Source of the DNA: a virus
Lineage: Duplodnaviria; Heunggongvirae; Uroviricota; Caudoviricetes
DNA length: 26,093 nt
IMG/VR virus record: IMGVR_UViG_2547132272_000023
Reading direction: 5' to 3' (one strand)
In this document: positions 1 to 26,093 of the stretch, in pieces
Position numbering within the stretch: the first letter of the stretch is position 1
Layout: every line of letters starts with the position of its first letter
Notes under the pieces: model-generated
Told to the model about the DNA's origin: nothing
The model's input: only the letters and a program-made list of their open reading frames with translations
Databases searched by the model: none
Position numbers and translations under genes: made by a program

Positions 1-1410
1 ATGTCTTTTCTTGATATAAAAAAAATGAGTAAAGAGAGGTTTAATGCTTTTGTTGATTGGACCAGAATGCCAAATACTGAACTTTTAGGTTATGAGTTTG
101 AGTGGTACTGTAGTCCGAGAGAGTTCCTGCTAGGGGCACTATTATTGGATCAAATCGATGAAGATTATAGCGGTATTGTTTTAGCAAGAGACTTAAGTGG
201 GAGATATAGATGTATTGACCTATTTACTAGTGTTTCAGAAATGAATTCTGCACGAGCAAAACTAAAGAAATTAATGCGGAAGCATACTAAATTAAACGTA
301 AAAGTATTTCCACAAGGTGATGAAACTTATAAAGCAATGGATTTATTCACACCTATAGTTACACTAGATAAACTTCATCATCATTTTTCATTATTTGGTA
401 AATACGCGAACTGGTCGCCTGCAACAGGGATAATCAAGGAAATGATGAATCATTTTGAGGATGTCGACGGGAATTTTATAGAGCAGTTTCAGACAACAGG
501 TTTTGATGCCCGGCTATGGGAGTTATATCTTTTCGCATATTTACGAGAGGAACACTTTTGGCTAGATAGGCAGTTTAATGCCCCTGATTATGTGGCACGT
601 AAGTATGGTAATACTATTTGCATTGAAGCTGTAACGGTTAATCCAACAGGGAATGATATTAATCAATCATCTGAAATGCTATCTGAACCTAAAAGTAAGG
701 AAGAATTGCTAGAGAAAATAGAGAATTATATGCCGATTAAATTTGGAAGTTCTCTCTATTCTAAACTGAAAAAGAAAACTCGATACTGGGATCTAGAACA
801 TGTTAAGGGGAATCCTTTAATTTTCGCAATTGCTGATTTTCATGAACCAAACTCTATGATTTGGTCCCATAGTGCACTTTGGCAGTATCTTTATGGTATT
901 CGCTATGAGCATGTTAAATCTGAAGATGGATGTTACAGTTTAGCAACTAAGAAAATTATATCGCATCAATTTGAGAAAAAGGAAATTCCTTCAGGCTTTT
1001 TCTTCTTGGATGAGTCTGAAAATATTTCGGCCGTCCTTAGTTCTAATAGTGGTACTATATCGAAGTTTAATCGGATGGGAAAACTGGCTGGTTTTGGAAG
1101 AAGTGACCTTAGATTATTTAGGAGTGGTTACTGCCATGATCATGACCCAGAGGCATTATATCCAGCAGCATTTAGTTTTGAAGTGAAAGAAGGCGATATT
1201 ACAGAAACATGGGCAGAAGGTTTAAATATGTATCATAATCCTAATGCTAAATATCCTGTAGATCCTGATTTATTTCCTTCAATAGCACATCATTTTCTTG
1301 AAAATGGAGAGGTTAAAAGTATAGTGCCTGACTTTCATCCGTATACATCTATTACCATAAATGTCTTAACTCAAAATAATAAAAAACAAAAAATCAGAGT
1401 AGATGAGTAA
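1..1410 (+). CDS. Hypothetical protein, AT-rich cargo gene at the P2 old/tin hotspot position; candidate accessory/defence function
   Basis: Uninterrupted 469-codon ORF, visibly AT-rich against the GC-rich phage backbone, convergent with portal gene Q. No Walker A, HNH, zinc-finger or transmembrane signature recognised by eye. ATG lies exactly at window position 1, so the true start may be upstream. Confidence 0.55.
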   Translation: MSFLDIKKMSKERFNAFVDWTRMPNTELLGYEFEWYCSPREFLLGALLLDQIDEDYSGIVLARDLSGRYRCIDLFTSVSEMNSARAKLKKLMRKHTKLNVKVFPQGDETYKAMDLFTPIVTLDKLHHHFSLFGKYANWSPATGIIKEMMNHFEDVDGNFIEQFQTTGFDARLWELYLFAYLREEHFWLDRQFNAPDYVARKYGNTICIEAVTVNPTGNDINQSSEMLSEPKSKEELLEKIENYMPIKFGSSLYSKLKKKTRYWDLEHVKGNPLIFAIADFHEPNSMIWSHSALWQYLYGIRYEHVKSEDGCYSLATKKIISHQFEKKEIPSGFFFLDESENISAVLSSNSGTISKFNRMGKLAGFGRSDLRLFRSGYCHDHDPEALYPAAFSFEVKEGDITETWAEGLNMYHNPNAKYPVDPDLFPSIAHHFLENGEVKSIVPDFHPYTSITINVLTQNNKKQKIRVDE

Positions 1411-1457: not shown

Positions 1458-2495
1458 TTAGTCTAGGGATAGTTGATATTCTTTGAATGTAATAATATTA
1501 TTTTTTAGCCATAAATTTAATTCTTCGAAACGTTTTTGCAAAGGTATTAATTCATTACGAACAAATACCCGACTTGCCTTCTCCACATCCCCAAACCCCC
1601 CAACATTATTCGGCAAAATTCCCATCATCTGAGGCGGTACGCGGTGTGCAGCCATCATGTCGTCTCGGCTCACGTTCTTGATGTTCAGAAATTCATCTTT
1701 CGCTGCGACTTCTGACAACGGGATGATCTGAAGCCCGTCCTTTTTGCCGTTAGGCGAGTACATAAACAGGTTGCGGAAGTTGCCAGGGCCTTTGGCGCTT
1801 TTCATCGCGTTGCGGAGGTTGTTCACATCTTCCTGGTTCTGCGCGGCGTCGGTCATATACATGATGAAGCCTGCATGACTGCCGTTAATGTAATACTTGC
1901 GGCGGAACAGCGTGGCAGACTCGTTGAGCAGGGCGGATGGAATAGCAGAAAGATAACCGGGCAGGCCGTAGATCTCCTGGTTGATGTCCGGTTCCATCAG
2001 ATGAAAGATGCTGCCTTTCGTGAACTGATATGGCTGCGTGGTCATACCGTATTGCACAAACCAGTAGGTATCCAGGTCTAACCCGCGTCGGGTGTATTTT
2101 GCCAAGGCAGGTTCAAGGGCGATAACTTCACCGAAGCGGTTCGTGCGTTTCTCCAGGTAGGCGTTACCAAATACCAGATAGTCCTGCACAAAACGCGAAA
2201 AAGCCTGCTGGCTGAGCAGCGGGTGAGGGATGTAGGTGCTGGTCAGAATGTTGCACTTTACTGCAATCGGGGAACTATGATGAACGGCAGCGCGGAAGGT
2301 GCGCGCCAGTCCGTCAAAGCTGACGGGCGGCTCATACCAGCGGTCCATCTGTACGCATTCCACATAATCCAGCAGTTCTCGGCGGTCCAGAACAGGAACG
2401 GGATCGCCGAAGCTGAATGCTTCGGCTGTAGTTTGACTTTTAAGCTGGATCTGTTTCGTCGCCGCAGCGCGGTTCTTCTTACTCTTTCCCATCAA
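1458..2495 (-). CDS. Q: Phage portal protein (P2 gpQ-like)
   Basis: 345 aa (P2 Q about 344 aa as recalled); ATGA start/stop overlap with the downstream terminase gene; position adjacent to P as in P2. Confidence 0.85.
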   Translation of the reverse strand: MMGKSKKNRAAATKQIQLKSQTTAEAFSFGDPVPVLDRRELLDYVECVQMDRWYEPPVSFDGLARTFRAAVHHSSPIAVKCNILTSTYIPHPLLSQQAFSRFVQDYLVFGNAYLEKRTNRFGEVIALEPALAKYTRRGLDLDTYWFVQYGMTTQPYQFTKGSIFHLMEPDINQEIYGLPGYLSAIPSALLNESATLFRRKYYINGSHAGFIMYMTDAAQNQEDVNNLRNAMKSAKGPGNFRNLFMYSPNGKKDGLQIIPLSEVAAKDEFLNIKNVSRDDMMAAHRVPPQMMGILPNNVGGFGDVEKASRVFVRNELIPLQKRFEELNLWLKNNIITFKEYQLSLD

Positions 2496-4258
2496 AAAAT
2501 CTCCACAATATTGCTGGTATTGGCGGATTCGCCCTGCAGCGGTTCGTTAAACAGTGCGTGCATCGTTGCCCAGGCCAGATCGGCGTGGCTGGCTTCTTCG
2601 CTGCGGCTGGCTTCATAGGTCGGGCGGTTGCCACTGGCGGTGGTGGCTCGACGGATTGCCATAAAGGACTGCGCTATGTCGGTGTGTCCGGCGTCAAACT
2701 CCAGACGGCGGTGGCTGATAATGTCGTAGGCCTTGAGTACCAGGGCGTTTTTAACGTTGGGGTTGTAGACAAACTCCCGGACGGCAGGAAAAAACGCTTT
2801 CACGTTCTCGTAAACCCCGTGACCAACGCCGGTTGAGTCGATACCGATATAGGTCACGTTGTACTGTTCGGTCAGTTTTTTGATGGCGTCAGCCTGGGCG
2901 CGGAAGTCCATTCCGCGCCACTGGTGACGCTCAAGAATGCGGAACTTACCGCCCGGCACGGCTGGCGGCGCCACCACCACGCATCCGGCGCTGTCGCCGT
3001 TCTGCGTACCTTTCGCCGGGTCATATCCGATCCACACTTCGCGCCAGCCAAACGGGCGCAGGGCCAGTGCATGAAAGTCGGTCCAGACTTCCCAACTGTC
3101 CACCATGCACGCCTGCAGCTCGCTGAGTGGGAACACAGACGCGAGATCGTCCACGAACTCACACATCAGCAGGTTCTGGTATTCGTCCGGGCTGTACTCC
3201 ATGCGCAACTGGTCGAGGTCGAACAGGTTACAGCCGCCGCGCACCGCATCTTCCACAGTGACTATCTGGCGGTACTGCCCGTCTGCGCACAGCAGGCCGG
3301 GGGCCAGATTGCTGTGGGACAGGTCGATGTCCACCTTATCGGCTTTGTTGCGCCCTCGGTTGAACAGCGCACCGGACCAGAACGGATAAGCACTGTGTGT
3401 CAGGCTGGATGGCGTGGAAAAATAGGTTTGTCGCCATTTTTTGTGAATAGCCATACCGGAAGCCACTTTGCGCAGCTCCTGGAATTTCGGTATCCAGAAA
3501 TATTCATCCAGATACAGGTTGCCGTGGTAACTCTGGGCCGTGCGGGCATTGGTGCCGAGGAAGTACAGCGTGGCCCCGTTAGGAAGCACCATCGGATCGC
3601 CTTTCAGCTCCACCTCCACTTCTTTGGCGAAGTCGATGATGTACTGCTTAAAGACGTGGGCCTGAGCCTTGCTGGCGGAAAGGAAAATCTGGTTACGCCC
3701 GGTTAGCAGGGCGTCAATCAGGGCTTCACGGGCAAAATAGAAGGTCGCGCCGATCTGGCGTGACTTCAGCAGGTTGCGGATGCGGTTGGTTTTTCCGGCT
3801 TCCCACCAGTGGCGCTGGTAGTTGAACATGGAGGAATGGAAGATTTCTTCCAGCTTCTCAATCTGTTCATCGGTGAAAACGTTCTTTTCCGGCTGACGGC
3901 GCGGGCCTTTGTTGCGGTTGGCGACGTTAGGGTTTAAGTCGGCTTCGTTGCCGCCATTGTTAAACTTGCCGATCCGCGCATGGCGCTCCGACTGGCGCGC
4001 CAGCAGGTCAATCTCTTTGAAATCTTTCCCTTCTTTGTGCTCCTTCATAATGAGCTGGCAGTAGCGTGCGGCGGTGGTGAGCTGCATCTGATCCAGCGGC
4101 CCATAGTCACCCCACTTGTCGCGTTTTTTCCAGCTGTGAACGGTTGCAACTTTCTCGCCCAGCATTTCAGCAATGCGGGCTACGCGGTATCCCTGAAAGT
4201 ACAGCAGCATGGCCTGCCGACGGGGATCGAGATCTGCGGGTGTCAGTGTGGTGTTCAT
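2492..4258 (-). CDS. P: Terminase large (ATPase) subunit (P2 gpP-like)
   Basis: 588 aa (P2 P about 590 aa); divergent from the O-N-M capsid operon across a 142-bp intergenic region, the same arrangement as P2. Confidence 0.9.
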   Translation of the reverse strand: MNTTLTPADLDPRRQAMLLYFQGYRVARIAEMLGEKVATVHSWKKRDKWGDYGPLDQMQLTTAARYCQLIMKEHKEGKDFKEIDLLARQSERHARIGKFNNGGNEADLNPNVANRNKGPRRQPEKNVFTDEQIEKLEEIFHSSMFNYQRHWWEAGKTNRIRNLLKSRQIGATFYFAREALIDALLTGRNQIFLSASKAQAHVFKQYIIDFAKEVEVELKGDPMVLPNGATLYFLGTNARTAQSYHGNLYLDEYFWIPKFQELRKVASGMAIHKKWRQTYFSTPSSLTHSAYPFWSGALFNRGRNKADKVDIDLSHSNLAPGLLCADGQYRQIVTVEDAVRGGCNLFDLDQLRMEYSPDEYQNLLMCEFVDDLASVFPLSELQACMVDSWEVWTDFHALALRPFGWREVWIGYDPAKGTQNGDSAGCVVVAPPAVPGGKFRILERHQWRGMDFRAQADAIKKLTEQYNVTYIGIDSTGVGHGVYENVKAFFPAVREFVYNPNVKNALVLKAYDIISHRRLEFDAGHTDIAQSFMAIRRATTASGNRPTYEASRSEEASHADLAWATMHALFNEPLQGESANTSNIVEIF

Positions 4259-4304
4259 GGCACAAACCTACAGCCTTGAATGAAGGCTTTCCCCGCCTGC
4301 GGTT

Positions 4305-4322
4305 TGTGTGGTTGTCGGTACA
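4305..4322. promoter_or_regulatory. TGT-N12-ACA dyad in the P/O divergent intergenic region; putative Ogr-dependent late promoter element (PO and/or PP)
   Basis: Sequence TGTgtggttgtcggtACA about 80 bp upstream of the O start codon; matches the P2 late-promoter activator-binding dyad as recalled. Confidence 0.4.
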
Positions 4323-4400
4323 AATACCGCGCATTGTTTCACTGCCCCCATCACCGCAACCATAAGGCTCCAGTAAGTTTTTTCTAACGGAGCACGGCTC

Positions 4401-5234
4401 ATGACAGTGAAAGCAAAGCGTTTTCGCATCGGGGTGGAAGGTGCCACCACCGACGGACGCGAAATCCAGCGTGAATGGCTGGAACAGATGGCAGCCAGCT
4501 ACAACCCGGCGGTGTATACCGCGCTGATTAACCTTGAGCACATCAAGTCTTATCTGCCGGACAGCACCTTTAACCGCTACGGCAAGGTGACGGCGCTGTT
4601 TGCTGAAGAAATCACGGAAGGTCCGCTGGCAGGCAAGATGGCGCTGTATGCCGACGTTGAGCCAACGGAGTCCCTGGTGGAACTGGTGAAAAAAGGCCAG
4701 AAATTATTCACCTCTATGGAAGTCAGCCCGAAGTTCGCTGATACGGGCAAAGCCTATCTGGTCGGCCTGGCGGCCACTGATGACCCTGCCAGTCTGGGTA
4801 CGGAAATGCTGACATTCAGCGCCAGTGCAGCCCATAACCCGCTGGCAAACCGCAAGCAGAATCCTGCCAATCTCTTTACCGCTGCAGAGGAAACGGTGAT
4901 CGAACTGGAAGAAATCCAGGACGACAAACCGTCCCTGTTTGCCCGCGTCACGGCGCTGTTTACCAAAAAAGAGCAGTCCGATGACGCCCGGTTCTCTGAT
5001 GTGCATAAGGCCGTGGAGCTGGTCGCCACTGAGCAGCAGAACCTGAGCGCACGCACCGAAAAATCCCTGTCTGAGCAGGAAGAACGCCTGTCTGAGCTGG
5101 AGACTGCCCTGCAGGCACAGCAAACCGCCTTTAACGAACTGGTGGACAAGCTGAGTCATGAAGACAGTCGCCAGGACTACCGCCAGCGTGCAACAGGCGG
5201 TAACGCCCCCGCTGACACTCTGACCAATTGCTGA
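4401..5234 (+). CDS. O: Capsid scaffolding protein (P2 gpO-like)
   Basis: 277 aa (P2 O about 284 aa), first gene of the O-N-M-L operon; acidic, coiled-coil-like C-terminal half. Confidence 0.85.
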   Translation: MTVKAKRFRIGVEGATTDGREIQREWLEQMAASYNPAVYTALINLEHIKSYLPDSTFNRYGKVTALFAEEITEGPLAGKMALYADVEPTESLVELVKKGQKLFTSMEVSPKFADTGKAYLVGLAATDDPASLGTEMLTFSASAAHNPLANRKQNPANLFTAAEETVIELEEIQDDKPSLFARVTALFTKKEQSDDARFSDVHKAVELVATEQQNLSARTEKSLSEQEERLSELETALQAQQTAFNELVDKLSHEDSRQDYRQRATGGNAPADTLTNC

Positions 5235-10212: not shown

Positions 10213-10230
10213 TGTATCAGCACTGATACA
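10213..10230. promoter_or_regulatory. TGT-N12-ACA dyad upstream of V; putative Ogr-dependent late promoter PV
   Basis: TGTatcagcactgatACA in the 68-bp S-V intergenic region, about 47 bp upstream of the V start codon. Confidence 0.45.
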
Positions 10231-10276: not shown

Positions 10277-10855
10277 ATGAACGCACAATTAACCGAAATC
10301 ATGCGCCTTATCACCAACCTGATCCGCACAGGGGTAGTCACCGAAGTGGACAGGGAAAACTGGCTTTGCCGGGTGAAAACGGGCGAGCTTGAAACCAACT
10401 GGATCAGCTGGCTGACGCTGCGTGCCGGGAATGCCCGTACATGGTGGCGACCATCGGAAGGTGAGCAGGTGGTGCTGCTGAGTCTGGGCGGCAATCTGGA
10501 AACCGCCTTTGCGCTGCCCGCTGTCTATTCGAATCAGTTCGCACCACCGTCGACGTCGGCGGACGCCTGCGTGACAGAACATCCTGACGGTGGCTGGTTT
10601 GAATACGAACCCGCCACCGGGCGCTGGTATGTCAGGGGCATCAAATCAATGGTCATTGAGGCTGCTGACAACATCACCATGAAAACCAGTGAGTTTGTAC
10701 TGGAGGCTGACCGCACGCGCATTAACAGCGAAGTGGTGATCAATGGTGGCGTTACCCAGGGCGGCGGAGCGATGAGTTCTAACGGGATCGTGGTTGATGC
10801 GCATCAGCATACTGGCGTCCTGAAAGGCGGCGATACAACCGGAGGCCCGGTATGA
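10277..10855 (+). CDS. V: Baseplate assembly/spike protein (P2 gpV-like)
   Basis: 192 aa, first gene after the putative PV promoter; position as P2 V. Confidence 0.75.
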   Translation: MNAQLTEIMRLITNLIRTGVVTEVDRENWLCRVKTGELETNWISWLTLRAGNARTWWRPSEGEQVVLLSLGGNLETAFALPAVYSNQFAPPSTSADACVTEHPDGGWFEYEPATGRWYVRGIKSMVIEAADNITMKTSEFVLEADRTRINSEVVINGGVTQGGGAMSSNGIVVDAHQHTGVLKGGDTTGGPV

Positions 10856-12704: not shown

Positions 12705-14128
12705 GCACAAAATTTTATACCCTGCTGACGGATATTGGCGCGGCGAAACTTGCCAGCGCCGCCGCGCTCGGTGTGCCGCTAAAAATTACCCATATGGCGG
12801 TGGGCGATGGCGGCGGAGCATTGCCGACGCCGGACGCAAAGCAGACTGCACTGGTAAATGAGAAACGCCGGGCTGCGCTGAATATGCTCTATATCGACCC
12901 GCAGAACAGCAGCCAGATTATTGCTGAACAGGTGATCCCTGAAAACGAGGGCGGTTGGTGGATACGTGAAGTGGGCCTGTTTGATGAGTCAGGGGCATTG
13001 ATTGCCGTGGGCAACTGCCCGGAAAGCTATAAACCGCAACTGGCTGAAGGCAGCGGGCGTACCCAGACCGTACGGATGGTGCTGATTACCAGCAGTACCG
13101 ATAATATCACACTGAAAATTGACCCTTCAGTGGTGCTGGCAACCCGCAAGTATGTGGATGACAAGGTGCTTGAGCTTAAGGTGTATGTGGATGACCTGAT
13201 GGCAAAGCATCTTGCTGCTGCAGATCCTCATACGCAGTATGCGCCCAAAGACAGCCCAACATTGACTGGCACGCCGAAAACGCCAACAGCACCGGCGGGA
13301 ACTAACACGACTCAGATTGCTAGCACGGCATTTGTGCAGGCGGTGGTCACTGCGCTAAATAACGCACTGGCGTTGAAAGCTCCACTGGCAAGTCCGGCCC
13401 TGACCGGAACGCCGACGGCTCCGACTGCAGCGCAGACGGCGAACAATACGCAGATTGCCACCACGGCATTTGTGAAAGCGGCAGTTGCCGAGATGGTCGG
13501 TTCATCGCCGGAGGCGCTGGATACGTTAAATGAATTGGCTGCTGCGCTGGGGAATGATCCTAACTTTGCGACAACAGTAATGAGTGCGCTGGCGGGAAAA
13601 ATGAACAAAGCAGCTAATGGCGCTGATATTGCCGATGTTTCTGCTTTTCTAAAAAACCTTCATCTTGGGGAGGGCAGTGCGTTGCCAGTCGGTGTTCCTG
13701 TTCCGTGGCCTACTGCAATACCGCCGGAAGGTTGGTTGAAGTGTAATGGAGCATCATTCAGTTCCTCGCAATATCCGAAACTGGCGCAGGTTTATCCGTC
13801 ATTAAAATTACCAGATCTACGCAGTGAGTTTATTCGCGGCTGGGACGATGGGCGTGGCGTAGACGCTGGACGTCAGGTTCTAACGTCTCAGACTGATGCT
13901 ATGCAGCCGATTATCGGCTCCATTGGCTATGGTACAAACGGTATGTTTACTTATGCTGATGGAGCTTTTACGGGTATAGATCGTGAAAGCGGAGACGGTA
14001 TTGTTACACAGGCAACAAGCATCTCACAATATAAACAGGCTCACTTAGATTCAAGTACGATAACACGAACAGCGGCAGAAACACGTCCACGGAATATTTC
14101 ATTTAATTACATTGTGAGAGCAGCATAA
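12701..14128 (+). CDS. H: Tail fibre protein (P2 gpH-like N-terminal part, exchanged C-terminal collar-type domain)
   Basis: N-terminal region including NELAAALGNDPNFATT resembles the conserved part of P2 H; C-terminal part carries a tail-collar-like segment (PVPWPTAIPPEGWLKCNG...LPDLRSEFIRGWDDGRGVDAGR) encoded by lower-GC DNA. Confidence 0.8.
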   Translation: MSTKFYTLLTDIGAAKLASAAALGVPLKITHMAVGDGGGALPTPDAKQTALVNEKRRAALNMLYIDPQNSSQIIAEQVIPENEGGWWIREVGLFDESGALIAVGNCPESYKPQLAEGSGRTQTVRMVLITSSTDNITLKIDPSVVLATRKYVDDKVLELKVYVDDLMAKHLAAADPHTQYAPKDSPTLTGTPKTPTAPAGTNTTQIASTAFVQAVVTALNNALALKAPLASPALTGTPTAPTAAQTANNTQIATTAFVKAAVAEMVGSSPEALDTLNELAAALGNDPNFATTVMSALAGKMNKAANGADIADVSAFLKNLHLGEGSALPVGVPVPWPTAIPPEGWLKCNGASFSSSQYPKLAQVYPSLKLPDLRSEFIRGWDDGRGVDAGRQVLTSQTDAMQPIIGSIGYGTNGMFTYADGAFTGIDRESGDGIVTQATSISQYKQAHLDSSTITRTAAETRPRNISFNYIVRAA

Positions 14129-14724
14129 TGACAGAAGCGAAACTAAATAATGAGTTTATAGCTGTGGAATCTGGCAATATAACGGTGTTTAACTTTGATA
14201 TTGAAACTCGTGAATATCTTTCTTCTAGTGTTGAATTTCTTGCTGTAGGGGTTGGGATTCCTGCTAATTCATGCATTGATATGCCGGGTAAAAGTAAAAA
14301 AGGGTTAACCATTTGCCGGACTAAGGATCTTACCGCGTGGGAATATATTGCTGATCATCGAGGTGAGACTGTTTACAGCACCGAAACTGGCAAAAAAATA
14401 GCTGTAACAGTGCTCGGCGATTACCCAGAAAAAACTACGAAACTACCTCCTGCTACACCATACGATAAGTGGAACGGTAGTGCATGGGTGACAGATACCG
14501 AGATGCAGCACGAGGTTGACGTGGAAACTGCTGATCAGAAGAAAGCGGAGCTTCTGGCAAAGGCTCAGCTAACAATCAATCTATGGCAGACAGAACTACA
14601 ATTAGGAATTATCAGTGATGAAGATAAAGTCAGACTAATCACCTGGATGAATTACATCAAAGCGGTGCAGTTGGTAGACACGTCAACTGCGCCAGATATA
14701 ACGTGGCCGAGGAAGCCCGAGTGA
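14128..14724 (+). CDS. G: Tail fibre assembly chaperone (P2 gpG position)
   Basis: 198 aa, start overlaps the H stop (TAATG); lower GC than the backbone, consistent with co-exchange with the H C-terminus. Confidence 0.7.
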   Translation: MTEAKLNNEFIAVESGNITVFNFDIETREYLSSSVEFLAVGVGIPANSCIDMPGKSKKGLTICRTKDLTAWEYIADHRGETVYSTETGKKIAVTVLGDYPEKTTKLPPATPYDKWNGSAWVTDTEMQHEVDVETADQKKAELLAKAQLTINLWQTELQLGIISDEDKVRLITWMNYIKAVQLVDTSTAPDITWPRKPE

Positions 14725-14809
14725 CTGAGAATTAAATGGTTAGTATCATCCTCCCCCACACTGCCTATATGGTATGAATACGAGGGGGAGGCTGTTTGTT
14801 GTCTGTTTC

Positions 14810-14818
14810 TGTGATAAT
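14810..14818 (+). promoter_or_regulatory. Putative extended -10 element (TGtGATAAT) for the acyltransferase cargo gene
   Basis: TG motif one base upstream of a GATAAT hexamer, about 35 bp upstream of ATG 14852; no good -35 hexamer. Confidence 0.3.
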
Positions 14819-14851
14819 ATTAGATTCCCGTTTTTTAATAAAAAAATCAAT

Positions 14852-15862
14852 ATGAAAGAGAATAAAATACGTTCTGCCGATGGCGTGAGAGGTTTCGCTT
14901 TGATGATTGTTGTGGTGATGCATTCTACGGGACTATTCTTTCCCTCACTTCATGATCATCTCGGAGGTACGGGGCAGCCCGGTGTTTGGTTGTTTTTTGT
15001 TCTTAGCGCCTTTTTGTTGACACATAAATTTATTAATTCTGGTTTTTCGTTTTTGAATGTGTTGAGTTATCTTTTAGGGCGAACAATAAGGATATTACCG
15101 ATTTTTTATATTGCAGTATTAATTTATTACCTTATGGGATTTTATGATTTAGAGAAAATGAAATCGATAATTTCATTTGATAGTACTTACATCCATCTCT
15201 GGACTATTCCGATAGAATTCAAGTTTTACTTTTTGTTGCCGATTGTGGTTTATCTCGCATCTAGTATCCAGAAAGTTGCAGGTAGAAAATATTCTTTGTT
15301 GTTTTTGATATTGTTAACCTTAGCGTTCGCTTTTATATACCCTTATACGGATGACGAAATCAACGGTAGGCTACCGTATTACATTCCTGTTTTTATGTAT
15401 GGAATTATAATTGCGTTTATGTATAACTATTTTCAAATTAAAATATCATCTCTCGTTAGTGATGGGGTGTCAATTGCGATTATATTAATATTTATAATGT
15501 TGACCCCTCCTTTTCAGGGGGCTAATGGTTGGCTGGGTAATAAATTTGTGGTATTGGGGCCATTTATTGCTCTCTTTGTATATCTGCAAGTAAATTCCAG
15601 TGGGTATGTAAGCGCGGTTTTATCTTCAAAAATCATGGCGGATTTGGGGAAATATAGTTTTTCAATTTATTTGTTTCATATAATGATAATTTTTATTGTT
15701 TATCCTAAATTTTTGGATAATGTTACTGCATACTTAGTTACTATAGCTTTATGTATTGGCGGTGGGGCTATTGCCTATCATTGCATTGAATCTCCCTTGG
15801 AATCGTTCAGACATAAGCTTATGAAAAGAATAACGCAGGCTTATCAGAATCAAAATATTTAA
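14852..15862 (+). CDS. Acyltransferase-3 family integral membrane protein; putative O-antigen/surface-polysaccharide acetyltransferase (lysogenic conversion cargo at the Z/fun position)
   Basis: N-terminus KIRSADGVRGFALMIVVVMH fits the conserved R...G.RG.A......H start of acyltransferase-3 proteins; about ten hydrophobic helices; strongly AT-rich; located between G and FI. Start placed at ATG 14852 rather than the track start 14774. Confidence 0.7.
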   Translation: MKENKIRSADGVRGFALMIVVVMHSTGLFFPSLHDHLGGTGQPGVWLFFVLSAFLLTHKFINSGFSFLNVLSYLLGRTIRILPIFYIAVLIYYLMGFYDLEKMKSIISFDSTYIHLWTIPIEFKFYFLLPIVVYLASSIQKVAGRKYSLLFLILLTLAFAFIYPYTDDEINGRLPYYIPVFMYGIIIAFMYNYFQIKISSLVSDGVSIAIILIFIMLTPPFQGANGWLGNKFVVLGPFIALFVYLQVNSSGYVSAVLSSKIMADLGKYSFSIYLFHIMIIFIVYPKFLDNVTAYLVTIALCIGGGAIAYHCIESPLESFRHKLMKRITQAYQNQNI

Positions 15863-15996: not shown

Positions 15997-16014
15997 TGTG
16001 TGATTAACCGTACA
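15997..16014. promoter_or_regulatory. TGT-N12-ACA dyad upstream of FI; putative Ogr-dependent late promoter PF
   Basis: gtTGTgtgattaaccgtACAac (extended GTTGT/ACAAC dyad) about 77 bp upstream of the FI start; AGGAGG ribosome-binding site at 16075-16080. Confidence 0.45.
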
Positions 16015-16090: not shown

Positions 16091-17263
16091 ATGGCTCAGG
16101 ATTACCACCACGGGGTGCGCGTTGTTGAAGTCAACGAAGGCACCCGATCCATTACCACGGTGAGCACCGCCATCGTGGGTATGGTCTGCACGGGCGATGA
16201 TGCCGATGCAAAAATGTTTCCTCTTAATAAACCTGTACTGATCACTGACGTGCTGACTGCCAGCGGTAAAGCGGGTGAGTCCGGCACGCTGGCCCGTTCG
16301 CTGGATGCCATCGCTGACCAGGCAAAACCCGTGACCGTTGTTGTGCGTGTGCCGCAGGGTGAAACGGAAGAAGAAACCACGACCAATATCATCGGCGCAG
16401 TGACTGCTGAAGGTAAAAAAACAGGCATGAAAGCCCTGTTATCTGCCCAGACACAGCTCGGCGTTAAACCGCGCATTCTCGGCGTGCCAGGTCACGATAA
16501 CAAAGCCGTTGCTACTGAGTTGCTGAGTGTGGCGCAAAGCCTGCGTGGGTTTGCCTACCTGTCAGCGTATGGCTGCAAGACGGTACAGGAGGCGATCACT
16601 TACCGTGAAAATTTCAGCCAGCGCGAAGGAATGCTGATCTGGCCTGACTTTACTGGCTGGGACACGGTGCTGAATGCCGAAGCAACGGCATATGCCACCG
16701 CCCGTGCGCTTGGTCTGCGTGCCAAAATTGATGAGCAGACCGGGTGGCACAAAAGCCTGTCCAACGTGGGCGTGAACGGTGTCACCGGAATTTCTGCAGA
16801 TGTGTTCTGGGATCTGCAGGACCCGGCAACCGATGCAGGTCTGCTGAACCAGAACGACGTCACCACACTTGTGCGTAAAGACGGTTTCCGCTTCTGGGGT
16901 TCCCGCTGCCTGAGTGATGACCCGCTCTTTGCCTTCGAAAACTACACCCGCACGGCGCAGGTGCTGATGGACACGATGGCAGAAGCACACATGTGGGCGG
17001 TGGATAAACCGCTTAACCCGTCGCTGGCCCGCGACATTATCGAAGGTATCCGCGCCAAAATGCGCAGCCTGGTCAGTCAAGGCTATCTCATTGGTGGTGA
17101 TTGCTGGCTGGATGAGTCGGTGAACGACAAAGACACGCTGAAAGCCGGAAAACTCACCATCGACTATGACTACACGCCAGTGCCGCCACTTGAAAATCTG
17201 ATGCTGCGCCAGCGCATCACCGATCAGTACCTGGTGAATTTTGCCAGCCAGGTCAGCGCGTAA
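16091..17263 (+). CDS. FI: Contractile tail sheath protein (P2 gpFI-like)
   Basis: 390 aa (P2 FI about 396 aa); N-terminus [32 protein letters not shown] closely resembles the P2 FI N-terminus as recalled. Confidence 0.9.
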
Positions 17264-21349: not shown

Positions 21350-21831
21350 TGATGGTGCTGGGATTGTACGTGTTTATGCTGCGCACCGTACCGTATCAGG
21401 AGCTGCAGTATCAACGCAGCTGGCGACATGCGGCAAACAGTCGGGTAAATCGTCGTCCGTCCACGCAGTTTCTGGGACCGGACAACGACATGCTGACGCT
21501 TTCTGGTGTTCTTATGCCGGAGATAACAGGCGGCAGGCTGTCGTTGCTGGCACTGGAGCAGATGGCAGAACAGGGGAAAGCATGGCCCCTGATTGAAGGC
21601 AGCGGCACGATTTATGGCATGTATGTGATTGAGGGACTGAATCAGACTAAAACGGAGTTTTTCCGCGATGGTATGCCGCGCCGGATTGAGTTCACCCTGT
21701 CGCTCAAACGGGTGGATGAATCCCTGTCCGATATGTTCGGTGATCTCAGTACGCAACTGAATAATCTGCAGGACACGGCAACATCTGCCTTAAGTGATAT
21801 CAGTAAAACGGTGGGAGGGCTGCTGTCGTGA
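21346..21831 (+). CDS. U: Tail protein (P2 gpU-like)
   Basis: 161 aa (P2 U about 159 aa); ATGA overlap with T. Confidence 0.8.
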   Translation: MMMVLGLYVFMLRTVPYQELQYQRSWRHAANSRVNRRPSTQFLGPDNDMLTLSGVLMPEITGGRLSLLALEQMAEQGKAWPLIEGSGTIYGMYVIEGLNQTKTEFFRDGMPRRIEFTLSLKRVDESLSDMFGDLSTQLNNLQDTATSALSDISKTVGGLLS

Positions 21832-22928
21832 ATTTCAGCTCTGAACTGCTTAACAAAGGCAACAAAACTCCCGCATTCAGCATCAGTATTGAGGGCAGGG
21901 ATATCACTACTGTGCTGGATAACCGTCTGATGAGTCTGACGTTGACGGACAATCGGGGCTTTGACGCGGACCAGCTTGATCTGGAGCTGGACGACGCCGA
22001 CGGAAAAATCGTGCTGCCGCGCCGTGGTGCGGTCATTACGCTGGCGCTGGGCTGGAAGGGGCAGCCGCTTTTCCCGAAAGGGACATTCACGGTGGACGAG
22101 ATTGAACACACTGGCGCACCGGACCGCCTGACTATCCGGGCGCGAAGTGCTGATTTTCGGGAAGCGCTGAATACCCGCCGTGAAAAATCGTGGCATAAGA
22201 CCACCGTCGGGGAAGTGGTGAAGGAAATAGCCGCGCGGCACAAGCTGAAGATGGCACTGGGTAAAGACCTGTCGGATAAGCCCGTGGAGCATATAGACCA
22301 GACTAATGAGAGTGACGGCAGTTTTCTGATGCGGCTGGCGCGACAGTACGGTGCCATCGCGTCGGTGAAAAATGGCAATCTGTTATTCATCCGGCAGGGG
22401 CAGGGCAAAAGCGCCACTGGTAAACCTCTGCCAGTGATCACTATCACACGCAAGGACGGCGACAGTCACCGATTTACCCTGGCAGATCGCGGAGCCTACA
22501 CGGGCGTAATTGCCAGCTGGTTGCATACCCGCGAACCTGCGAAGAAAGAAAGCACCACGGTGAAGCGTAAGCGCAGAACTAAGAAGCAGAAGAAAGAGCC
22601 AGAAGCGAAGCAGGGCGATTACCTGGTGGGTACGGATGAAAACGTGCTGGTACTTAATCGCACTTATGCCAACCGGAGCAACGCCGAACGAGCGGCGAAA
22701 ATGCAGTGGGAACGCCTGCAACGCGGCGTTGCGTCATTTTCGCTACAACTGGCAGAAGGGCGGGCAGATCTCTACACGGAAATGCCTGTGAAGGTCAGTG
22801 GTTTTAAACAGCCGATAGATGATGCGGAATGGACCATTACGACTCTGACGCATACCGTCAGCCCGGATAACGGTTTTACGACCAGTCTGGAGCTTGAAGT
22901 GAGGATTGATGATTTCGAAATGGAATGA
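21828..22928 (+). CDS. D: Tail protein / late control gene D (P2 gpD-like)
   Basis: 366 aa; last late structural gene before ogr, as in P2; overlaps the U stop. Confidence 0.85.
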   Translation: MNFSSELLNKGNKTPAFSISIEGRDITTVLDNRLMSLTLTDNRGFDADQLDLELDDADGKIVLPRRGAVITLALGWKGQPLFPKGTFTVDEIEHTGAPDRLTIRARSADFREALNTRREKSWHKTTVGEVVKEIAARHKLKMALGKDLSDKPVEHIDQTNESDGSFLMRLARQYGAIASVKNGNLLFIRQGQGKSATGKPLPVITITRKDGDSHRFTLADRGAYTGVIASWLHTREPAKKESTTVKRKRRTKKQKKEPEAKQGDYLVGTDENVLVLNRTYANRSNAERAAKMQWERLQRGVASFSLQLAEGRADLYTEMPVKVSGFKQPIDDAEWTITTLTHTVSPDNGFTTSLELEVRIDDFEME

Positions 22929-23018: not shown

Positions 23019-23237
23019 ATGATGATTTGCCCACTGTGTGGAAGTGCCGCCCATACTCGCAGCAGTTTTCAGGTATCTTCATTGACCAAAGAGCGTTACA
23101 ACCAGTGCCAGAACATTAACTGCAGCCATACTTTTGTTACCCATGAAACTTTTGTTCGTTCGATTGCAACGCCAAAAGAGTCAAATCCGGTTCAGCCGCA
23201 TCCAATGAAATCAGGACAGGTGGCGCTCTCTCTTTGA
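23019..23237 (+). CDS. ogr: Zinc-finger late transcription activator (P2 Ogr-like)
   Basis: ATG 23019 with GGGGAGA upstream gives 72 aa, the P2 Ogr length; Cys4 motif CPLCG-X22-CQNINC near the N-terminus. Confidence 0.8.
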   Translation: MMICPLCGSAAHTRSSFQVSSLTKERYNQCQNINCSHTFVTHETFVRSIATPKESNPVQPHPMKSGQVALSL

Positions 23238-23317
23238 CGCTGCCGCCATTTTGTCGCCATCGTTAAAAAACAGTGCTTCTAACATCATGATTTTAAACAG
23301 CTTAAATTTCAGGCAAC

Positions 23318-23360
23318 AAAAAACCCATCAACCTTGAACCGAAATGGCGGGGTTGATGGG
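23318..23360 (-). terminator. Rho-independent terminator of ybjL (hairpin plus U-tract on the minus strand)
   Basis: CCCATCAACC (23324-23333) pairs with GGTTGATGGG (23351-23360); on the minus strand the hairpin is followed by TTTTTTGT. The 17-nt loop is rather large. Confidence 0.4.
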
Positions 23361-23472
23361 CTCCACAAAATGGGGACATCAAAGAAAAGCAGTGGCACTA
23401 ATTAAGACTGATGCCCCGAGGAAAAGTTCTGCGGTTGTACAAAAAAATTTCATTTTTGGGGCAACTTCAGTT

Positions 23473-25158
23473 TTATCCGAGTCCTGGCCATACCATTACG
23501 ATGATTGTCCCTGCCAGCGTCAGCAGTACGTTAGCTATTGCATAAGTGCCCGCATAACCTAAGGCCGGGATGTTGCTGCGCGCAGTGTCGCTGATGATCT
23601 CCATTGCCGGAGCACAAGTACGTGCGCCCATCATTGCACCGAATAACAGCGCGCGGTTCATGCGCAGCACATAAGCGCCAAACAGGAAGCAAATAACAAC
23701 GGGCACCAGGCTGACAATTAACCCGGCAATCAACATCTGACCGCCAATCGCACCCAGGCCGTTATTGATGCCACTACCGGCGCTTAAACCCACGCCCGCC
23801 ATAAATACCATCAAACCGAACTCTTTCACCATGCTTAACGCGCCCTGGGGAATATAGCCGAAGGTCGGGTGGTTCGCTCGCATAAAGCCCAGCATAATAC
23901 CAGCGAATAACAATCCGGCGGCGTTACCCATGCCGAAGCTGAATGTGCTGAACTGGAAGGTGATCATCCCGATCATCAGACCGATGACAAAGAACGCGCA
24001 GAATGCCAGTAGATCGGTAACCTGGCTGTGAATCGAGATAAAGCCGATGCGATCGGCGATGGTTTTCACGCGACGGGCATCGCCGCTCACCTGCAATACA
24101 TCGCCTTTATTAAGCACCACGTTATCGTCGATCGGCATTTCGATCTGGCTGCGGATGACGCGGTTAAGGAAACAACCGTGATCGGTCAGCTTCAGTTGTG
24201 CCAGGCGTTTACCGACAGCGTTATGGTTTTTGACGACCACCTCTTCAGTGACGATACGCATGTCGAGAAGATCTCGATCAAAAACTTCTTTACCGTTACG
24301 GAAGCTGGGATCGAGTCGGGCGTGGGCGTCGGGATATCCTACCAACGCTATTTCATCGCCCATCTGTAGCACGGCGTCACCATCCGGATTTGCCAGAATC
24401 CCGTTACGACGAATACGTTCAATGTAGCAACCGGTTTGTCGATAAATACCCAGTTCGCGCAAGTTTTTGCCATCGGCCCAGGCGACCAGTTCCGGCCCGA
24501 CGCGGTAGGCGCGAATGACCGGCAGATAGACTTTACGGCTGGCGTCGGTATCCAGACCCCGTTCACGAGCGATTTGTTGGGCGCTGGTTTGTAAGTCCTG
24601 ATGCTGCAACTTAGGCAAGTAACGCGCACCGACAATCAAACTCACCAGGCCAATCAAATAGGTTAATGCATACCCGAGGCTTAAATTATCCAGTGCCGCA
24701 GAGAGCTGCCCGCTTTCTATTCCTGAGTGGCGTAAGGTATCGCCCGCACCAACCAAAACCGGTGTTGATGTCATTGAACCAGCCAACATACCGGCCGTCA
24801 GGCCGATGTCCCAGCCAAACAACTTACCCAGTCCTAAGGCGATCAGCAGTGCACTACCGACCATTACCAGGGCTAACATTAGGTAATTTTTCCCATCGCG
24901 GAAAAAAATGGAAAAAAAGTTGGGTCCGGCTTCGACCCCGACGCAGAAAATAAACAGCATAAAGCCAAGATTAAGCGCGTCGGTGTTAATACTGAAATGT
25001 TGTTGACCTAATAACAGTGATACGACTAAAACGCCAATGGAATTACCCAGTTGGATTGAACCAAGTCGTAATTTTCCGAGACATAGTCCAAGCGCGAGGA
25101 CCACGAATAATAACAGAATGTAATTCCCATTTAACAATTCGGCGACGTTTATATTCAC
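23473..25158 (-). CDS. ybjL: Putative transporter of the AspT/YidE/YbjL family (host chromosomal gene)
   Basis: 561 aa, two hydrophobic transporter halves separated by a soluble central region; N-terminus [29 protein letters not shown] recognised as E. coli YbjL from memory; lies next to ybjM and grxA as in E. coli K-12. Confidence 0.8.
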
Positions 25159-25426
25159 GGAGACTAACTTCTTGTTTACGAGTAAGCTGTTGAAAGAAAT
25201 GGTAATTTAAGATAATGTTTTTACCTGAATTCAGAGCGCAGATTCATTCAGCGCACTTAATCAATAGTAAAGTAACAATATATTTTACTAGTGTAATCAC
25301 ATTAGATACCAACGGCTATAAGAATTGTGTTGGCCTATATTAGCATGGAATGCGAAGCGGCTTTATCTTACTGAGCGCCACACCGGCGAAAAATGTGTTC
25401 GATAGAGGCAGTGTCAGGAGGAACAT

Positions 25427-25804
25427 GTGAAACATAAACAACATTGGGCGGGGGCAATTTGCTGTTTTGTCCTCTTTATTGTGGTGTGCCTTTTTCTGGC
25501 GACACATATGAAGGGAGCTTTTCGGGCTGCCGGGCACCCTGAAATCGGCTTACTGTTTTTCATTCTTCCTGGGGCTGTAGCCAGCTTTTTTTCGCGGCGT
25601 AGAGAAGTCCTTAAACCACTGTTTGGCGCAATGCTGGCAGCACCGTGTTCTATGTTAATTATGCGTCTGTTTTTTTCACCATCACGCTCATTCTGGCAGG
25701 AGCTGGCGTGGTTGTTGAGTGCCGTCTTCTGGTGTGCGCTGGGCGCATTATGTTTTTTGTTTATCAGTAGCTTGTTCAGGCCGCAACACAGAAAAAATCA
25801 ATAA
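25427..25804 (+). CDS. ybjM: Inner membrane protein YbjM (host)
   Basis: 125-aa hydrophobic protein between ybjL and grxA, the K-12 arrangement. Confidence 0.65.
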   Translation: MKHKQHWAGAICCFVLFIVVCLFLATHMKGAFRAAGHPEIGLLFFILPGAVASFFSRRREVLKPLFGAMLAAPCSMLIMRLFFSPSRSFWQELAWLLSAVFWCALGALCFLFISSLFRPQHRKNQ

Positions 25805-25826
25805 AGCCCTCAAACAGAGAGGGCTT
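25804..25826. terminator. Bidirectional terminator hairpin between convergent ybjM and grxA
   Basis: AAGCCCTC-aaacaga-GAGGGCTT stem-loop between the two stop codons. Confidence 0.4.
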
Positions 25827-25835
25827 ATCCGGTAA

Positions 25836-26093
25836 TCAGGCGTCAAGATTCTCTTTCACCCAGGCAGCAAAATCGGTATAGCCACCGATGTGTTGCTGAT
25901 CGACAAAAATCTGCGGTACGGTTTCTACCGGCTTGCCAGCTTTCTGTTGCAGATCCTCTTTAGTGATCCCTTCAGTACGAATATCCACATACTGATAGTG
26001 AAAATCATCGTGTTCATTACTTAACTTTTCTGCCAAATCTTTGGCACGCACGCAGTAAGGGCAACCCGGACGACCGAAAATAACGGTTTGCAT
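25836..26093 (-). CDS. grxA: Glutaredoxin 1 (host)
   Basis: 85 aa with the CPYC active site (GRPGCPYCVRAK); the start codon coincides with the last base of the window. Confidence 0.85.
   Translation of the reverse strand: MQTVIFGRPGCPYCVRAKDLAEKLSNEHDDFHYQYVDIRTEGITKEDLQQKAGKPVETVPQIFVDQQHIGGYTDFAAWVKENLDA

Follow-up and report, generated by a model that had tools for sequence, protein, structure and literature searches.

According to its RefSeq record (NC_001895), phage P2 carries one annotated element between its divergent P and O operons, i.e., an "activator binding site; pO, pP promoters" at 3057–3087, within the 173 bp gap that separates the P start codon (ATG at 2993) from the O start codon (ATG at 3167). 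The best dyad within this element, TGTGTCAGTGATAAGCCA (3063–3080), reads TGT-N12-CCA and differs by one mismatch from TGT-N12-ACA, which has been quoted as the consensus of the P2 PP, PO, PV, and PF promoters (PMC3931495). The centre of this dyad (3071.5) is located 55.5 bp from both mapped transcription starts, i.e., 3016 for the P operon and 3127 for the O operon. Both promoters are devoid of a consensus –35 element, and their –10 elements read TAGCCT for PP (on the P strand of the motif GGCAAGGCTAC, covering –12 to –7 when counted from the mapped start at 3016) and GAAACT for PO (3115–3120, 7 nt 5′ of the mapped start at 3127). The resulting P leader is 23 nt long (3016 to 2994) and carries GAGG as its Shine-Dalgarno sequence, 5 nt ahead of the start codon, while the O leader is 40 nt long. 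For V, in turn, the P2 record places the transcription start at the first base of the CDS, approximately 56 bp from the centre of the activator site, and a leaderless arrangement is already known for this P2 gene. Leaderless mRNA from P2 is also cited as a classic case (PMC4633059, which refers to Christie & Calendar 1985).

The record of phage 186 (NC_001317) is organized similarly, with one B-protein site (3798–3817) for activation of both divergent promoters (pV and p12), in a gap of 165 bp. The 186 site again reads TGT-N12-CCA, and its centre is located 78.5 bp from the ATG of the P homolog, which follows a leader that includes a Shine-Dalgarno sequence (GAGG, 5 nt ahead of the start codon as in P2 and PSP3), and 87.5 bp from the ATG of the O homolog. 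More generally, the annotated sites in both genomes read TGT-N12-CCA (3063–3080 and 17561–17578 in P2; 3800–3817 and 14093–14110 in 186), and no exact TGT-N12-ACA was found at the late promoters of the P2 and 186 genomes. In the Stenotrophomonas phage Smp131, which has distant hosts, an 18-bp TGT-N12-ACA-like element is present on both strands (i.e., PP′ and PO′ are the same 18-mer read on opposite strands), together with an Ogr-like protein of the CX2CX22CX4C type (PMC3931495). That element is likewise only predicted, and no start-codon geometry was given for it.

The DNA stretch analysed here (26,093 nucleotides; referred to as the window) is the late-gene half of a P2-like prophage, as revealed by its open reading frames and by similarity searches. 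The leftward late operon starts with the P gene for the terminase large subunit (2492–4258, minus strand), followed at its 3′ side by Q (1458–2495, minus strand), while the rightward late operon starts with the O gene for the capsid scaffold (4401–5234, plus strand) and continues into head, lysis, and tail genes, with V starting at 10277, FI starting at 16091, and D located at 21828–22928. The window is most similar to the records of Klebsiella phage 4LV2017 and Escherichia phage 500465-1 (ca. 96% nucleotide identity over 1.5–23.4 kb). SopEPhi and RE2010 share the P/O region at ca. 91% and belong to the same group as the window prophage, while P2 is distant (gpP being 62% identical to the window P).

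The P ORF starts with an ATG at 4256–4258 (minus strand) and the O ORF with an ATG at 4401 (plus strand), leaving a gap of 142 bp (4259–4400) between the two divergent genes, as the original prediction had it. The TGT-N12-ACA dyad reported for this gap, i.e., TGTGTGGTTGTCGGTACA at 4305–4322, was likewise confirmed in both its letters and its coordinates, and consists of TGT (4305–4307), a 12-nt spacer (4308–4319), and ACA (4320–4322), with its centre at 4313.5. Among relatives, the consensus extends to T-TGTg-N10-cACA-A, corresponding to 4304–4323 in the window and forming a 5-bp inverted repeat (TTGTG/CACAA). The same prediction considered the gap to match the P2 arrangement, which proved correct for the divergent layout but not for the length, since the corresponding gaps measure 173 bp in P2 and 165 bp in 186.

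Taken alone, this dyad is weak evidence, since exact TGT-N12-ACA matches are not enriched across the window (9 matches vs. 6.6 ± 2.5 in shuffled sequences) and since the chance of finding one exact match per 142 bp is about 3% (125/4096). Its context, however, is more telling. Three of the nine matches (starting at 4305, 10213, and 15997) are situated in the short intergenic gaps 5′ of P/O, V, and FI, which together measure 438 bp (1.7% of the window) and should contain only ca. 0.11 matches (Poisson p-value of ca. 2e-4). An exact dyad thus precedes each of the late operons starting with P-Q, O, V, and F. The V dyad (TGTATCAGCACTGATACA, 10213–10230), as counterpart of P2 PV, is centred 55.5 bp from the V ATG at 10277, and the FI dyad (TGTGTGATTAACCGTACA, 15997–16014), as counterpart of P2 PF, is centred 85.5 bp from the FI ATG at 16091. 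The latter distance amounts to 82.5 bp in P2, 81.5 bp in 186, 82.5 bp in PSP3, and 83.5 bp in 4LV2017. As a side observation, the V dyad forms a perfect 8-bp inverted repeat (TGTATCAG CA CTGATACA) that is identical in 4LV2017 and far more symmetric than the V sites of P2 and 186, which have no good right half.

The window also encodes a candidate cognate activator. As in P2, a small gene of the Ogr family follows D (23019–23237, plus strand), and its 72-amino-acid product displays a C4 zinc-finger signature (CX2C-X22-CX4C) and matches the PF04606 Ogr_Delta family with an E-value of 5e-22 (78 bits vs. a cut-off of 26.3). This product is 51% identical to P2 Ogr, 54% identical to both 186 B and PSP3 Pag, and 100% identical to the Ogr-like protein of 4LV2017.

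To examine conservation of the dyad, a gpP N-terminal alignment was used to scan a single genome of each species, which yielded 80 prophage loci (from Citrobacter, Enterobacter, Klebsiella, Pantoea, Erwinia, Photorhabdus, Xenorhabdus, Providencia, Yersinia, Pectobacterium, Aeromonas, Burkholderiales, and other hosts). After locating the P and O start codons of each locus via tblastn and extracting the gap between them, 82 gaps could be analysed, i.e., those of the window, P2, 186, PSP3, and 78 species-level prophages. In 49 of these 82 gaps, an exact TGT-N12-ACA is centred precisely 55.5 bp away from the ATG of P. The comparison loci were picked by their similarity to the window P and are mutually related, so that this count does not represent independent events and the majority it shows cannot be extended to all P2-like phages. 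P identity in these 49 loci spans 100% down to 63%, and 31 distinct 18-mers occur at the dyad position. In the 29 non-redundant sequences (differing by at least 10%), both the TGT and the ACA reach 2.0 bits, while the 12-nt spacer has a mean of only 0.76 bits. Such a pattern, with invariant half-sites around a free spacer, is to be expected of a protein-binding dyad. Spacer variation was already visible in an earlier scan of viral contigs with the P N-terminus, of which the 80 loci (96–100% protein identity) are too close for strong conservation arguments.

These counts bear on the question whether the dyad might simply be a chance match, or the site of another regulator such as a CRP-like host factor or a PpsR/CrtJ-type repressor. 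While the absence of TGT-N12-ACA enrichment across the whole window would be compatible with chance, the 82 related gaps contain 57 exact dyads vs. 2.6 expected at uniform base composition, with 49 of them at one single offset and at most four at every other offset. The CRP consensus (TGTGA-N6-TCACA) corresponds to TGT-N10-ACA, whereas the spacing observed here is N12. TGT-N12-ACA is, according to our literature search, indeed also the motif of PpsR/CrtJ in purple bacteria, but these regulators belong to photosynthetic proteobacteria, whereas the prophage resides in an enterobacterium (as witnessed by its ybjL, rybB, and grxA flanks) and brings along its own Ogr gene. We therefore consider a chance match or another regulator's site to be extremely improbable. 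It is the context (i.e., three gap sites where P2 has late promoters), the conservation, and the activator gene that make the dyad convincing. As such, the original assignment to the Ogr/Delta type of late-promoter elements is well supported by the fit to the consensus, the position equivalent to that in P2 and 186, the Ogr_Delta gene, and the invariant half-sites with variable spacer, and the dyad is very probably an Ogr-type late-promoter activator site.

The expectation that P2 has separate PP and PO sites, from which a second, degenerate site in the window gap had been proposed, was not borne out, since the P2 and 186 records each annotate a single shared site, the Smp131 PP′ and PO′ elements coincide, and no second conserved dyad was found among the relatives. 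Within the P/O gap of the window, the only other dyad with at most one mismatch overlaps the main one (4307–4324). If the dyad were nevertheless to serve one promoter and a degenerate site the other, the best candidate for the latter would be the TTGTTTC block at 4334–4340, 30 bp to the right. The TTGT of this block (4334–4337) is as conserved (2.0 bits) as the TTGT of the dyad, and in some relatives the 18-mer starting from it is only one mismatch away from TGT-N12-ACA (e.g., TGTTTCCCCGGCGTAACG). Moreover, the P4 sid promoter has been reported to have a second Delta site nearer to the core promoter. In the window, however, the corresponding 18-mer has two mismatches, and the would-be right half is not conserved among relatives (0.4–0.7 bits). 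The block also occupies –35 to –29 relative to the predicted PO, separated by 17 bp from the –10 homolog, and is thereby better read as a –35-like element, while its distance of 85.5 bp from the P ATG would not suit a PP site. Altogether, a two-site arrangement appears very unlikely, and one symmetric site would drive both divergent operons.

Another exact dyad (TGTGGTGTTCATGGCACA, 4247–4264) was noticed over the P ATG, centred at approximately +3 relative to the predicted PP. Relatives read GGCCCA in place of a conserved ACA, and this match is probably due to chance. It is part of an 8-nt inverted repeat that is formed by CACAAACC (4261–4268) and GGTTTGTG (4301–4308) and that involves the left half of the main dyad.

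With the single dyad as a reference point, the P2 geometry was transferred to the window, placing the predicted transcription starts of PP and PO at 4258 and ca. 4369, respectively, each 55.5 bp from the dyad centre at 4313.5. A simple scan of the 4100–4500 region revealed no consensus sigma-70 promoter, which fits with activator-dependent promoters. A terminator-like hit in a simple scan (4316–4329, with a 5-bp stem) lies within the dyad/promoter region and was considered incidental.

The alignment of the 49 loci is free of indels from the P ATG up to gap position ~111, and variation in gap length is confined to the O leader (the distance from the dyad to the O ATG ranging from 81.5 to 110.5 bp, with the 87.5 bp of the window being identical to that of 186). 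Within this rigid part, four conserved blocks can be discerned, the second of which is the dyad itself. The first block comprises TAC at gap positions 11–13 and A at position 7, which on the P strand correspond to T(–12), A(–11), and T(–7), each at 2.0 bits in the 29 non-redundant sequences. All 49 loci have this TAnnnT motif at –12 to –7 relative to the P ATG, and 74 of the 82 loci have it at either –12 to –7 or –13 to –8. In the window it reads TAGGTT (4265–4270, minus strand; –12 to –7 when the A of the P start codon counts as +1) and is the putative PP –10 element, homologous to TAGCCT of P2, whereas the PP –35 region reads GGGAAA.

The third block, TTGTtTC (gap positions 76–82, i.e., 4334–4340), has its TTGT fixed at 30 bp from the TTGT of the dyad throughout the 29 non-redundant relatives, and would provide PO with its –35-like element (TTGTTT, 4334–4339, plus strand). 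The fourth block (gcAA.cata.ggc, gap positions 98–110) contains the putative PO –10 element CAACCA (4357–4362, plus strand), separated from TTGTTT by a 17-bp spacer. CAACCA is poor as a –10 element, without a T at –7. The A at –11 is invariant among relatives, and an intermediate locus reading TTGTTG-17-GAAACT links it to the GAAACT of P2. Alternatively, CATAAG (4361–4366) could serve as the –10 element, with a start at ca. 4373. The PO start zone is predicted at 4367–4373 (plus strand), in which 4369 is the position at 55.5 bp from the dyad centre, and the predicted O leader of ca. 32 nt (vs. 40 nt in P2) would contain a GGAG at 4389–4392.

Based on these features, we propose that the prophage's own Ogr homolog (23019–23237) binds the dyad at 4305–4322 and would thereby be positioned between two activator-dependent sigma-70 promoters arranged back to back, ca. 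55 bp upstream of each. PP would fire leftward into the packaging genes P-Q from its –10 element TAGGTT (4270–4265), and PO would fire rightward into O-N-M and the genes beyond (head genes) from TTGTTT (4334–4339) and CAACCA (4357–4362). P2 Ogr acts via the C-terminal domain of the RNA polymerase alpha subunit, and the window homolog may, by analogy, activate both promoters through the same contact. A second activator site would be neither needed nor present, and PP would start at the A of the P ATG (4258), giving rise to a leaderless terminase mRNA. We hold this overall reading, with a single Ogr-type activator site shared by back-to-back PP and PO promoters, no second site, and a PP start that coincides with the P ATG, to be likely. 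For annotation, it would show where the late genes are switched on in this prophage and in a large family of P2-like prophages from Klebsiella, Salmonella, and Escherichia.

The element is of a well-known kind, and its only mildly novel aspect is the conserved, probably leaderless terminase mRNA, which sets the window lineage apart from P2 and 186. The distance from the dyad centre to the P ATG is 55.5 bp in the window vs. 78.5 bp in P2, 186, and PSP3, and this 23-bp offset difference corresponds to the P leader of P2. Most of the gap difference from P2 is this 23-nt P leader, and the window lineage is missing the 22–23-nt leader with Shine-Dalgarno sequence that P2 and 186 have. Among the 82 loci, only P2, 186, and PSP3 have such a leader in front of P. 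Within the 49 loci, a Shine-Dalgarno sequence is found upstream of P in none, vs. upstream of O in 40. The P start was an ATG at every locus analysed, as called by a start-finding script that favoured ATG, and the distance between this ATG and the dyad is constant, whereas the peptide preceding the conserved DPRR/K motif can be anywhere between 5 and 10 residues long. The P start codon thus seems to keep its place relative to the promoter and not to the protein, in the absence of a ribosome-binding site, which yields a clear prediction of a conserved leaderless terminase mRNA. With its +1 at the A of the P start codon, PP would yield a leaderless P-Q mRNA, an arrangement that P2 has at V only. 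In the window, the V and P ATGs are both located 55.5 bp from an exact dyad, and the same geometry is therefore predicted for the terminase gene as well. A literature search returned nothing relevant on leaderless terminase genes in P2-like phages.

This reading was weighed against the possibility that the dyad is indeed the shared activator site while P is not leaderless, either because translation starts at Met17 (ATG at 4210–4208, with a 48-nt leader) or because PP starts upstream of 4258 in a geometry other than that of P2. The GenBank entry of 4LV2017 has its gpP beginning at an internal Met, leaderless mRNAs are rare in enterobacteria, and a weak AGG is present 8 nt upstream of the window P ATG. 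This AGG is, however, gone in close relatives (reading TATGTTTGGGCC-ATG). Furthermore, the N-terminus of the window P aligns with P2 gpP and its 186 homolog, including residues 1–16, and the start of these proteins is the equivalent Met1. The DPRRQA motif located upstream of Met17 is invariant, whereas at least 12 relatives have a Leu instead of Met17. A leader would also have to be reconciled with the lack of a Shine-Dalgarno sequence in all 49 loci, with TAnnnT lying exactly at –12 to –7 of the ATG, and with an ATG-to-dyad distance that stays fixed despite indels in the coding N-terminus. A non-leaderless P is thus unlikely, and a leaderless window P mRNA, as suggested by geometry and conservation, is fairly probable.

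Extended to its relatives, this suggests a large, host-diverse group of P2-like phages with leaderless P mRNA, in which the ATG is locked at an activator-dependent +1, exactly 55.5 bp away from the centre of the shared dyad, while P2 and 186 would be the exceptions that gained a 22–23-nt leader with Shine-Dalgarno sequence. We give this scenario somewhat better than even chances. The putative group would comprise the SopEPhi, RE2010, and 4LV2017 types, next to prophages of Citrobacter, Enterobacter, Pantoea, Photorhabdus, Xenorhabdus, and Providencia. If true, leaderless (70S-type) initiation would determine how the packaging enzyme is expressed, and many gpP starts that are placed at an internal Met in the databases would be wrong. 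Since P lacks a Shine-Dalgarno sequence, gene callers are prone to mis-start it. In 4LV2017 (KY271398.1), for example, gpP is annotated at 13949–15667 from an internal Met (573 amino acids), while the ATG at 15715 yields a protein of 588 amino acids that aligns with Met1 of P2 gpP. Such mis-starting at the internal Met is likely systematic in this phage group.

One locus in the survey, from Proteus faecis, has a gap of 174 bp in which 83.5 bp separate the exact dyad from the P ATG that was chosen, and is the sole locus with an exact dyad at another offset. It may reflect either the independent gain of a ca. 28-nt leader or a wrong start-codon call. Prophages of Pectobacterium and Yersinia, in turn, display a P2-type asymmetric site (TTGTG..CAG.G.T.AG). 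Two classes of sites appear to exist, which might be linked to activator specificity, and the perfect dyad of the window lineage may go along with a somewhat different activator specificity than that of P2 and 186, with their TGT-N12-CCA sites.

Finally, some observations concern the surroundings of the prophage. On its right side, it is flanked by rybB, ybjL, ybjM, and grxA. The RybB sRNA gene is present in full length (23315–23393, minus strand; Rfam RF00110, 105 bits), ca. 80 bp past the ogr stop codon and before ybjL. Its location between the prophage end and ybjL points to an attachment site at or adjoining the 3′ end of rybB. The host flank (23240–26093, with ybjL, ybjM, and grxA) is 80–90% identical to all 5,419 E. 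coli genomes (90.2% at best), and the host is probably an enterobacterium other than a typical E. coli, even though the nearest phage record stems from E. coli. On the left side, an ORF that runs off the window edge (1–1410, plus strand) encodes 469 amino acids without a Pfam hit, which match the anti-phage defence protein PD-T7-1 over nearly its full length (PADLOC PDLC04073, E-value of 3.5e-196). This ORF is located just outside Q, where P2 has old/tin and 4LV2017 has a reverse-transcriptase gene, which suggests a variable cargo slot for defence genes adjoining cos.
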